NCBI GenBank assembly: GCA_037147155.1
Contig: JBAWVR010000002.1
Span: forward strand, 1 to 38,573
DNA: 38,573 bases
Direction: 5' to 3'
Origin: a bacterium
GTDB taxonomy: Bacteria > Patescibacteriota > Minisyncoccia > Phycocordibacterales > GWA1-40-21
The stretch's first letter is position 1. Each line of letters begins with the position of its first letter. Positions 34,838 through 38,064 of the stretch are shown here, in pieces. The notes below the pieces were generated by a model. It was not told the DNA's origin. It did not search any database and saw only the letters and a list, made by a program, of their open reading frames with translations. A program made the position numbers and the translations under genes.

Positions 34838-35859
34838 AAAAAGTAGCCACAGAGATTAGATTCAAGGATTCTAAAGGTTTCTGGCAGACATTGCCGACGC
34901 CTTTTTTCTGTTTGGCGCCCATGCTCGATGTGACTGATCAGGCTTTTCGACAGGTAATTGCTAAATATAGTCGTCATGGTGAAGTTGGTGGTGGCCCCGA
35001 TGTTTTTTGGACTGAATTTGTTTCAGCTGACGGACTAGATTCTCGTGGTTATGAAAATCTATTGCTGATGTTGGCTTTTAAGAAAAACGAGAAACCAATA
35101 GTGGCTCAGATTTTTACTGCATCACCAGCTCACATGTTGAAAGCTGCCCAGATTATTGAGAAACTTGGCTTCGATGGATTAGATATTAATATGGGTTGTC
35201 CAGACAAAGGTGTACAAAAGCAGGGTTCTGGCGCAGCACTGATTAAGAGCCCTAAACTTGCACGCGAGATTATTCGAGCTGCTTTAGAAGGCGCTCCAAA
35301 TATCCCAGTCTCAGTAAAAACTCGTTTGGGTTACAACAAGGAAGAGATTGAAACTTGGATTCCGGAATTACTAAAGGAAAATATTGCTGCTCTCACTATT
35401 CATGGTCGCACCAAGAAAGATATGTCCGAAGTGCCAGCTCGTTGGGAGTCTATCAGGAAAGTGGTGGAAGAAGTTAGAAAGTCTGGCCGCGATATTCCCG
35501 TGATTGGTAACGGTGACGTTAGTGATTTGAAGGATGGAGAACAGAAGGCTAAGGAGTCTGGTTGTGACGGTATTATGATTGGTCGCGGTATTTTTGGTAA
35601 GCCGTGGTTATTTGACCGAGCTCGAAAGACTGAACCAACCTTGCCTGAACGTTTAGATATGCTGATACACCACACCGAGCAATTTTTAAAGATTATTGGT
35701 AAACGAAAAGCTTTTGATGTCATGAAAAAACATTACAAAGCTTATTGTAGCGGCTTTGACGGAGCCAGGGATTTGCGCATTGCGCTCATGGCTGCTCCAG
35801 ACCTTGCAACGGTTAAAAAATTAGTGAAAGATTTTCTTAAGACATACAAAAGTCAATAG
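34834..35859 (+). CDS. dus: tRNA-dihydrouridine synthase
   Basis: LAPMLDVTDQAFR, DINMGCP, VSVKTRLG and LTIHGRT motifs. The GTG start overlaps the upstream stop. Confidence 0.85.
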   Translation: MKKVATEIRFKDSKGFWQTLPTPFFCLAPMLDVTDQAFRQVIAKYSRHGEVGGGPDVFWTEFVSADGLDSRGYENLLLMLAFKKNEKPIVAQIFTASPAHMLKAAQIIEKLGFDGLDINMGCPDKGVQKQGSGAALIKSPKLAREIIRAALEGAPNIPVSVKTRLGYNKEEIETWIPELLKENIAALTIHGRTKKDMSEVPARWESIRKVVEEVRKSGRDIPVIGNGDVSDLKDGEQKAKESGCDGIMIGRGIFGKPWLFDRARKTEPTLPERLDMLIHHTEQFLKIIGKRKAFDVMKKHYKAYCSGFDGARDLRIALMAAPDLATVKKLVKDFLKTYKSQ

Positions 35860-35892
35860 GGCCAAAATTACGTAACCTTTTGCTTTTTAATA

Positions 35893-35933
35893 CAAGTCTT
35901 GCCGACTAGTGTTGTTGGGTGTTTAATTATATT
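35893..35933 (+). promoter_or_regulatory. promoter-like element, copy a
   Basis: CAAGTCTTGC-N14-GGGTGTTTAATTA, which fits a -35-like TTGCCG and a TG-extended -10-like region. It is duplicated at 36406. Confidence 0.5.
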
Positions 35934-35974
35934 TGGTAAATCTGTTCCTTAACCTTTTTACGGGGAGGTGTATT

Positions 35975-36172
35975 ATGAATAAACCTGTTTGTGAGCGTCC
36001 AAGACCACTGTGCCAAGAAACCAAGTGCTGTACGGAGAGTTGTCTTAGAAGTGAGATGAAAGGTGGTCACACAGCAACTTGTCCACAGTGCCAAAAGGAG
36101 GTGCCCATGTCATCAATGGAATCTAAGCCCGGAGGTGGTTCGTTTGTTTGTCTGACTTGCCGTGGAAAATGA
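35975..36172 (+). CDS. 65-aa Cys-rich small protein (zinc-ribbon-like)
   Basis: ggggaggtg SD before the ATG at 35975. Contains 10 Cys, including the CPQC and CLTC pairs. Confidence 0.5.
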   Translation: MNKPVCERPRPLCQETKCCTESCLRSEMKGGHTATCPQCQKEVPMSSMESKPGGGSFVCLTCRGK

Positions 36173-36348
36173 AGTGTTCCCAAACTCTAAACCAAGGAGG
36201 TGTAACACTGACCCACTTTACTCAACTTTTCGGGGTGAGAAAAAGACGGTATTTTCTACACTTGAATTTCGTAATGACTAACCATTATCAGAAATAAGAG
36301 GTGAAACAATAAGGATGAACCCTTTCGATTTTGAGTCTATATGCAATT

Positions 36349-36376
36349 CACCCCGCGACCGTACGGGGTGTTTTTT
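36349..36376 (+). terminator. intrinsic terminator
   Basis: caccccg cgaccgta cggggtg tttttt. Confidence 0.85.
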
Positions 36377-36405
36377 AATATTACAAAATTATTTATATGT
36401 TCTTT

Positions 36406-36446
36406 CAAGACTTGCTAGTATTCTCTTGAGGGTGTTTAATTAATTT
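36406..36446 (+). promoter_or_regulatory. promoter-like element, copy b
   Basis: CAAGACTTGC-N14-GGGTGTTTAATTA. Same spacing and an identical 13-mer to copy a. Confidence 0.5.
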
Positions 36447-36803
36447 AGCAAATTTAGTACATTGTAAAGGTGGAAAGGAGGTGACTCACTAACATACTTG
36501 GAGGAATAGAAAACAATACGGAATGTTTTCTGTTGGCCGTGGGCGAAACCATCATCCTTATCCCAGAAAGGGACAGATTATCTCAGCTCATTTGGGTTTG
36601 CAATTCAGCATTACCCAGCAACTTGAGAGGAGGTGGTCCTAATTCCTTGTGGGCCAATCATCGTATTGTAGGCGGAAGCTGAACCGTGTTCGAGCGCCTC
36701 GGTGTGCTCCATGATTCATAAGCCTGTCCTAGACTTCTAGCCTCGTCGTTAGATTGGGATGCAAATTAAACCATCGCTTTGTCCGTACACTGCGGTGGTT
36801 TTC
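36447..36803 (+). ncRNA. candidate ~350-nt non-coding RNA of unknown family
   Basis: Bounded by promoter copy b and a terminator-like hairpin (aaaccatcgc..gcggtggttt+T). No ORF of 60 aa or more on either strand. Several local helices, for example agaaaaca/tgttttct and ttggcc/ggccaa. Confidence 0.4.
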
Positions 36804-36927
36804 TATTCAATATCACCTTCAGTGGTTTAAAATTTTGTAAGATTGTTCCTTGTCGGCGGCGCTGGTGGTACGGCCCACATCAGTGACTGTGAAGTAAACA
36901 TTATTAACCCCTATTTACGTTTAGACT

Positions 36928-36959
36928 ACCCACCTCGGACCGTAAGGTGGGTTTTTTTA
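36928..36959 (+). terminator. intrinsic terminator upstream of dnaX
   Basis: acccacct cggaccgta aggtgggt ttttttt. Confidence 0.85.
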
Positions 36960-37008
36960 TTTTTCCCATTTGTCTGCTATAATTCAGATAAGTTAATCAA
37001 TCAAAATT

Positions 37009-38064
37009 ATGAGTAAAACCCAAGAAACAAATACCGAACAAGCCATCTATCGTCGCTATCGTCCACAAGAGTTTAATGATGTGATAGGACAGGATCATAT
37101 TGTAAATACTTTGAAATCTTCTTTAGAAAAAGGACAGATTGGCCATGCTTATCTTTTCTGCGGTTCTCGCGGTACTGGCAAGACTTCAGTGGCGAGAATT
37201 TTGGCCAAGGCAGTCAATTGTGCCCCGAGTGATTTGTCAGAGATTGATGCAGCATCACACAATAGCGTGGATGATATTCGTGAACTCAATGAAGCGGTGA
37301 ATACTTTGCCTTTTGAATCACCATACAAAGTTTATATTTTTGATGAAGTGCACATGCTCTCCAAAGGTGCTTTCAATGCTCTACTTAAAACCTTGGAAGA
37401 ACCACCAAAACACGTGATATTTATTTTGGCTACGACTGAAATGGAAAAAGTACCAGAGACAATTATTTCCCGTTGCCAAGCTTTTGTTTTTCGCAAGCCA
37501 GGTCAAAAGATTTTGAAAGAAATGGTGATGAATATTGCCAAGAAGGAAAAAATTACTTTAGAACCGGCATCAGCTGATTTGATTGCGCTACTCGGAGATG
37601 GTTCTTTCCGTGATACTCAAAGTATTTTGCAAAAAGTTATTTCATCTTCACCGGACAAAAAGATTTCTGCCGAAGAGGTGATGGCTGTGACAGGCGCGCC
37701 ACGAGCTGAGACTATTAATAATTATTTATTGTCTATTAAGAACAAAGATTTGAAAATTGGTCTAAAGTCCATTGAGGATTTGTCAGAGCACAATATTGAT
37801 CCAATCATCTTTATTAAAATGGTGATTTTGAAATTACGTGCGGCTCTTTTGGTCAAGCTTGTTCCGAGCAAAGAGAATGATTTGGCCGAAGATTTTTCTG
37901 AGGCGGATATGGTGTTTGTTAAAGAGATGTCAGCTGATGCCACTGGCGCTATTTCGGCCAAAACTCTCGCCGACCTCACTCTGGTGGCTGATGGACTCAA
38001 AGGGGCAGTCATGCCAACACTGCCACTCGAGATTGCTCTTATGAGGATTATCGGACAAAACTAA
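37009..38064 (+). CDS. dnaX: DNA polymerase III gamma/tau subunit (short, 351 aa)
   Basis: GHAYLFCGSRGTGKTS (Walker A), DEVHMLS, LKTLEEPP and SRCQ sensor motifs. Confidence 0.9.
   Translation: MSKTQETNTEQAIYRRYRPQEFNDVIGQDHIVNTLKSSLEKGQIGHAYLFCGSRGTGKTSVARILAKAVNCAPSDLSEIDAASHNSVDDIRELNEAVNTLPFESPYKVYIFDEVHMLSKGAFNALLKTLEEPPKHVIFILATTEMEKVPETIISRCQAFVFRKPGQKILKEMVMNIAKKEKITLEPASADLIALLGDGSFRDTQSILQKVISSSPDKKISAEEVMAVTGAPRAETINNYLLSIKNKDLKIGLKSIEDLSEHNIDPIIFIKMVILKLRAALLVKLVPSKENDLAEDFSEADMVFVKEMSADATGAISAKTLADLTLVADGLKGAVMPTLPLEIALMRIIGQN

Follow-up and report, generated by a model that had tools for sequence, protein, structure and literature searches.

An expressed and structured small RNA gene, probably of an uncatalogued family, between dus and dnaX in a Minisyncoccia genome

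The question raised by this locus is whether a block that lacks long open reading frames, at 36173-37008 directly upstream of dnaX (37009-38064), holds genes for non-coding RNAs. The window, that is the whole stretch of 38,573 nucleotides analysed here, is contig C2 of a genome of 876 kb in 90 contigs, with 39.5% GC and 98.85% completeness; by the source names of its closest protein matches, the genome falls in Minisyncoccia (Patescibacteria/CPR). On its other side the block is bordered by a Cys-rich 65-aa ORF, upstream of which dus, the gene of tRNA-dihydrouridine synthase, ends at 35859. An earlier sequence-only reading had taken the block as a set of candidate ncRNA genes, holding that no ORF of 60 aa or more exists in it, that three hairpin-plus-T-run terminators partition it and that a promoter copy lies at 36406-36446. 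All three of these observations are confirmed. With ATG, GTG and TTG starts, the longest ORFs in the block have 57 aa (36843-37016, plus strand) and 49 aa, and stop-to-stop frames reach 65 and 61 codons. The terminators fold at the places predicted, each followed by a U-run: T1 (36349-36374, -12.9 kcal/mol, then UUUUUU), T2 (36768-36801, -15.8 kcal/mol with z of -5.2, then UUUUCU) and T3 (36928-36952, -12.3 kcal/mol, then U7). The promoter, copy b, aligns with a copy a at 35893-35935, and the two have in common CAAG.CTTGC and GGGTGTTTAATTA.ATTT.G.AAAT, in which GGGTGTTTAATTA is a 13-mer. As for the candidate genes themselves, the proposal holds for 36447-36803; 36804-36959 and 36173-36376 stay candidates only. 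The units of the region are as follows.

35975 to 36172, plus strand: Cys-rich 65-aa ORF with two CxxC pairs; a GGAGGTG and promoter copy a lie upstream; an orphan
36173 to 36376, plus strand: unit 0, the last part of the Cys-ORF transcript as far as T1, with one GGAGGUG box (36196)
36406 to 36446, plus strand: promoter copy b, with TTGCTA at 36412-36417, a 17-nt spacer and a TG-extended TTTAAT at 36435-36440; predicted start at about 36447
36447 to 36803, plus strand: predicted primary transcript of the small RNA, from promoter b to T2; the plus strand is favoured by the consensus fold
36470 to 36763, plus strand: RNA species seen, in contigs 36470-36762, 36479-36763, 36474-36762, and 36481-36631 plus 36612-36762
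36768 to 36803, plus strand: terminator T2, outside the RNA contigs; the nearest other species (L049) keeps the hairpin with other sequence and a U7 run
36804 to 36959, plus strand: unit 3, with T3 preceded by a weak -10-like site of the TG-extended type (GTGGTTTAAAAT); candidate only; absent in L049
36975 to 36983, plus strand: promoter -10 element of dnaX (TGCTATAAT), with a short leader to the ATG at 37009 and no SD

Transcript data come from freshwater metatranscriptomes. Eight runs from two studies contain part of the window, and the contigs of four of them were compared with 35500-37400. On the whole, contigs of 285-293 nt made wholly of 36470-36763 are found in four RNA-seq runs from the two studies, with 0-3 differences from the window, those of the second study being 36611 T>A and 36723 C>T. 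The contigs of the four runs cover, within 35500-37400, neither dus, nor the Cys-rich ORF, nor 36173-36469, nor T2, nor 36804-36959, nor dnaX. That two studies yield this piece by itself, and none of its neighbours, is as expected of a stable and abundant small RNA; the contigs give no strand, ends or level, so abundance is judged by selective assembly. The transcript of about 350 nt (36447-36803) that had been forecast thus gains support from RNA data. The contigs begin some 23 nt downstream of the predicted start and end before T2, a difference that needs either processing or incomplete assembly; their shared stop at 36762/36763 lies five bases 5' of the T2 hairpin and is a weak hint of 3' trimming. 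In our reading, the form in which the small RNA accumulates is about 293 nt long (36470-36763).

The neighbouring units fare less well. A second transcript had been expected at 36804-36959; this unit has no contig cover in the runs and is absent in the nearest species. Unit 0 shows no sign of an RNA of its own, with no cover in the metatranscriptome contigs and no conservation signal, although the lack of cover on these two units tells nothing firm about absence of RNA there. The Cys-rich ORF has no homologue but itself among 5.8 billion proteins and no RNA-contig cover in the four runs; it may be a gene.

The location on the same strand upstream of dnaX, with terminators that could serve as attenuators, would also fit a cis-acting leader that controls dnaX. 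Two to three full terminators and the separate TGCTATAAT promoter stand between the small RNA and dnaX, however, and the RNA contigs end at 36763 with dnaX left bare. Before dnaX in the relatives the same TGCTATAAT or TGTTATAAT is found. In most relatives in the family, dus is followed by a unit of 240-860 nt that is poor in ORFs and whose strong terminator lies 33-62 nt upstream of dnaX; a TGCTATAAT-type -10 element of dnaX, close to the ATG, stands between the end of the unit and dnaX. We regard control of dnaX in cis as extremely unlikely.

The second line of evidence is conservation. Contigs of the same species from four other samples are 100% identical over the block, and for this reason were dropped as an uninformative test. 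The nearest other species, L049, is represented by a Logan contig of 2.4 kb with a dnaX 84% identical to that of the window, and 265 bases upstream of this dnaX align with 36555-36805. Blocks identical in the two include ACUUGA, GGAGGUGGUCCUA, CCUUGUGGGC, UGUAGG, AGCUGA, UCAUAAGC, CUAGACU and UGCAAA, and are separated by indels of 1, 2, 5 and 12 nt, which shift every reading frame. Since the nucleotide blocks stay identical through these shifts, the small RNA is judged to be non-coding. In L049 the third unit is missing, and the terminator is located about 75 nt from dnaX. The main parts recognized in the small RNA are the following.

36477 to 36483, plus strand: 5'-proximal GGAGGUG box, inside GGAAAGGAGGUGA; complements the canonical 16S tail
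36495 to 36517, plus strand: 23S-like 23-mer, 22 of 23 positions identical to 23S rRNA of family relatives; its AGAAAACA (36508-36515) pairs with UGUUUUCU (36524-36531)
36614 to 36653, plus strand: conserved core, with a CCCA/UGGG closing helix and an AGGA/UCCU stem with a GGUGG loop (box 36629-36635), followed by AAUUCCUUG
36654 to 36757, plus strand: long hairpin, irregular, with 22 pairs, of which six show compensatory change relative to L049; contains the conserved AGCUGA, UCAUAAGC and CUAGACU

Folded on its own, the small RNA is no more stable than its shuffles (z of -0.85 and -1.56). The consensus fold of the window and L049 has 37 pairs, all of them standard in both sequences, and 9 of the 37 are changed on both sides, against 0-1 in controls slid by 1-3 columns; this covariation is between two sequences only, and the structure so examined was derived from those same two. 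As to the strand, the consensus fold reaches -35.7 kcal/mol on the plus strand against -24.3 on the minus strand, and 26 G.U cells of the plus strand would be A.C on the minus strand. A minus-strand reading, which would give the RNA a 3' end resembling a 16S tail (..CACCUCCUUUCCAC), was rejected on two grounds: folding is better on the plus strand, where G.U pairs are numerous, and in the relatives the promoters and terminators are on the plus strand. From the expression together with the compensatory changes, we conclude that 36447-36803 is very probably a real, expressed and structured ncRNA gene, with a promoter and a terminator of its own and belonging to an uncatalogued family. Like stand-alone sRNA genes in general, it has its own promoter, an intrinsic terminator, a discrete transcript and a conserved structure, with no conserved ORF. 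Running on the plus strand from promoter b to T2, such a gene would give a structured, stable and abundant small ncRNA.

Beyond L049, relatives were reached through Dus homologues of 75-78% identity, which led to three loci, L057, L060 and L061 (the last being genome G002). In the dus-dnaX interval of each of the three, an RNA of about 130-230 nt is flanked by a promoter of the TG-extended type (GGTGATAATAT) and by a strong terminator. The core at 36614-36653 is common to L049, L057, L060 and L061, and a stretch of about 35 nt, GARRGGWGRUGRUCCUA(0-3 nt)CCUUR(0-1 nt)GGGC, is common to the window and the latter three. In the hairpin adjoining the core, CGCC/GGCG is changed to CACC/GGUG in L057, and one-base indels in the three loci against the window rule out a common reading frame. 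We model the core box as folding into a small stem-loop beside a conserved CCUAA..CCUU strand. Outside this circle, blastn and nhmmer against the relatives and the genome itself give no homologue of the small RNA beyond L049; a pattern search in 401 genomes of the order matches the window alone; and covariance models R1 (from 2 sequences) and R2 (from the 5-sequence core) find nothing significant outside the genus. Of two metagenome pattern scans, one gives 0 matches and the other 2 chance matches in unrelated GC-rich DNA, a scan of a genome collection returns G002 only, and a phage collection has no match. We read the family as a genus-level and uncatalogued one that is not SRP RNA. Family-wide homology is positional and k-mer based: among 17 dus-dnaX spacers, the strongest enrichment after that of U-runs is shown by GGAGGTG, in 7 spacers where 0.4 would be expected, and by AGGAGG, with 9 where 1.4 would be. 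We infer that the small RNA may belong to a set of fast-evolving RNA genes that in Minisyncoccia hold their place between dus and dnaX, with one to three GGAGGUG(R)UC boxes as the conserved feature.

The position is of interest in itself, since ffs, the gene of SRP RNA, lies upstream of dnaX in many bacteria; the RNA genes between dus and dnaX would take the place that ffs has there. The sequence-only reading had therefore raised ffs as a lead, while noting that the domain IV signature with a GGAA tetraloop and AGCA could not be found; an SRP RNA here would have to be one too divergent for the Rfam models. Large bacterial SRP RNAs are near 290 nt in size. The small RNA is like bacterial SRP RNA genes in standing directly upstream of dnaX, a frequent synteny of these genes, in having its own promoter and terminator, in its size of about 290 nt, and in its apparent abundance; also, no other SRP RNA is found in the genome. 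Against these stand searches at several levels. With Rfam 15 at the gathering score the window gives only tRNAs, and the block at E up to 10 gives terminator look-alikes only, in agreement with the sequence-only reading, which had assigned no family; on 11 loci of relatives together with the window, the same search yields nothing but tRNAs and spurious matches, for example to rdlD and rimP, that resemble terminators. The two SRP RNA models, RF00169 and RF01854, match nothing in the region, even with E allowed up to 10, and nothing in the whole genome, and are negative in relatives of the order (40 and 39 genomes). A pattern scan of the whole genome for the domain IV motif (..AGG..GGAA..AGCA..) gives 0 matches. 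One candidate for a domain IV hairpin, CCCAGAAAGGGACAG (CCC-AGAAA-GGG), does not keep its AGCA side in L049. RNase P RNA and tmRNA are located elsewhere in the genome, on C64 and C5 respectively. The 5S rRNA, suggested by CAGAAG and GAGAG.AGGG look-alikes, was rejected as a candidate, the true 5S being on another contig, C58.

The protein side agrees with the RNA side. For Ffh and FtsY, the models PF02978, PF00448, TIGR00959 and TIGR00064 give no real match in this genome of 98.85% completeness, and in long frames the DTAGR and GxxGxGKTT motifs are present only in three secretion-type ATPases. PF02978 is likewise negative in 30 relatives of the order and in a phylum-wide sample of 40 further genomes (41 counting the window genome), and PF00448 in 30 further sampled genomes of the phylum (31 with the window genome), both phylum samples including single-contig genomes. 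This lack of Ffh and FtsY matches in the samples of Patescibacteria is unexpected. In literature on SRP or the anti-Shine-Dalgarno in CPR/Patescibacteria we found nothing relevant. Because the lineage appears to have no SRP proteins, the small RNA is unlikely to be an SRP RNA; it differs from SRP RNA in having neither a covariance-model match nor a domain IV, in belonging to a genome and lineage with no detectable Ffh or FtsY, and in a conserved core with no counterpart identified in SRP RNA. An SRP identity is largely refuted, and a divergent ffs or scr is hardly credible to us.

A further reading is that of a 6S-like RNA, which would bind RNA polymerase. The apparent abundance and processing of the small RNA, its fast sequence evolution and its long irregular hairpin would suit a 6S-like RNA. 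However, a search at E up to 10 matches no 6S family (RF00013 and related); several domains make up the conserved fold, not a single rod with a central bubble and paired 5' and 3' ends; and the relatives of about 130 nt within the genus do not have the long hairpin. On balance a 6S-like function is highly unlikely.

A further sequence feature of the region is the G-rich box. GGAGGTG is present 99 times on both strands of the whole genome, about one per 17.7 kb per strand, and six copies on the plus strand fall within 35965-36635 against about 0.04 expected. Within the small RNA the boxes are in GGAAAGGAGGUGA (36472-36484) and GAGAGGAGGUGGUCC (36625-36639), both almost perfectly complementary to the canonical 16S 3' tail. 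In the genome holding the window, the 16S ends in ..CUCGUGGAUUAAUUCAAAUUGAA, which has no CCUCC, and the CCUCC is missing as well in all 16 relatives of the order with a readable 16S 3' end (loci L063-L079). In the genome holding the window (G000) and in these 16 relatives alike, the 16S 3' end follows the pattern ..GGAWUWWUUCAAAU.. instead of GGAUCACCUCCUUA, so that the anti-Shine-Dalgarno CCUCC is missing; in G000 it is located on contig C21 (minus strand, about 14294-14240), and non-rRNA DNA follows, not 23S. Of 640 long ORFs, 3.9% have GGAGG and 13% have TATAAT within 20 nt of the first ATG. Most mRNAs, that of dnaX included, look leaderless or nearly so. Since the 16S has no CCUCC and most mRNAs look leaderless, a role of the boxes as ordinary ribosome-binding sites is unlikely. 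Elsewhere in G000, a repeated motif that bears GGAGGTG, CTGATAAACAAAGGAGGTG.TACCGCG, has two copies 1.25 kb apart, at C13:5747 and C13:6998 (plus strand).

The boxes bear directly on whether the transcript could be an mRNA for one or more tiny proteins, with ORFs of 39-49 codons or shorter being real. As perfect SD-like sequences they would serve such an mRNA well, ORFs are available at 36523-36642 and 36533-36682, and GGAGG within 20 nt of the start does occur in about 4% of genes. The details do not agree with this, however: no canonical start lies 4-12 nt past the boxes at 36196, 36477 and 36629; L049 does not preserve the frames, nor are they preserved among L057, L060 and L061, the indels not being multiples of three; the helices have compensatory changes; and the 16S of the order has no CCUCC for the boxes to pair with. 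A coding function is very unlikely.

What the non-coding RNA does is a matter of more tentative reading. With more than one G-rich box, an apparently high abundance and no ribosomal partner for the boxes, the small RNA may be an abundant RNA acting in trans, its boxes binding some factor (protein or CU-rich RNA) and perhaps keeping it sequestered. Such a mode, by analogy with multi-site sponge RNAs, is the likeliest of those considered, and we hold it with considerable doubt. The textbook partner of sponge RNAs is CsrA. With the CsrB/RsmZ sRNAs, the small RNA shares a size of about 300 nt, an intrinsic terminator and several G-rich boxes (GGA within GGAGG), part of them in or beside hairpin loops. 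Many GGA exposed in hairpin loops are a mark of these sRNAs; nine GGA in the 357 nt of the small RNA against about 4 expected by composition, with the core box in a stem-loop, would be at most a hint of this trait. The small RNA differs in that each RNA has 2-3 boxes, that the box is a full GGAGGUG and not ANGGA, and that the genome has no CsrA, PF02599 giving only a sub-threshold match of 20.6 bits inside a frame of 381 aa.

A further feature is the likeness to 23S rRNA. The 23-mer has a local score of 41 against 20.7 ± 2.2 for shuffles and matches about nt 237-260 of the relatives' 23S, with the likeness hardly extending past that stretch; in the genome holding the window, the 23S is not assembled and the 16S is in part only. 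Within 36495-36531, the 8-mer of the 23-mer and an antisense copy further downstream pair along all 8 bp into a perfect hairpin. A bolder proposal can be built on this, in which the small RNA is a descendant of, or a substitute for, the gene once present at the ancestral ffs locus in a phylum that would have lost the SRP proteins, with the boxes and the 23S-identical 23-mer acting on ribosomes. These might be the organism's own ribosomes, which have no anti-Shine-Dalgarno and would be reached through a protein, or the canonical ribosomes of a host cell, an option that arises because Patescibacteria are thought to live attached to other cells. We consider the proposal quite improbable; if true, it would mean a ribosome-directed small RNA of a kind not described before.

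Patescibacteria are a large share of bacterial diversity, and to our knowledge almost nothing is known of their regulatory RNAs. The small RNA reported here has transcript data from two independent environmental studies as well as compensatory changes, which most predicted CPR RNAs do not have. If the 16S with no CCUCC and the missing Ffh and FtsY hold up, the G-rich boxes would offer a handle on translation or RNA control in such reduced cells. The small RNA also gives context to a recurring pattern, that of a fast-evolving RNA gene at the ffs position before dnaX.

Two minor observations concern the relatives. A short repeat, TGTCATTGCGAGG..CGAAGCAATCC, partly in inverted pairs, is present at L049:290-330, L061:3840-4010, L060:2410-2510 and in the dus-dnaX spacer of L032, and looks like a small dispersed element of the relatives' genomes. 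The loci L023 and L026, both of genus g6, have in common other hairpins, long and conserved, between about 650 and 50 nt upstream of dnaX, namely CCUAAUCUGG.CCGC..GCGGG.CAGAUUAGG and GACGAGCUUGGA..UCCAAGCUCGUC, which are probably another RNA gene family at the dus-dnaX position.
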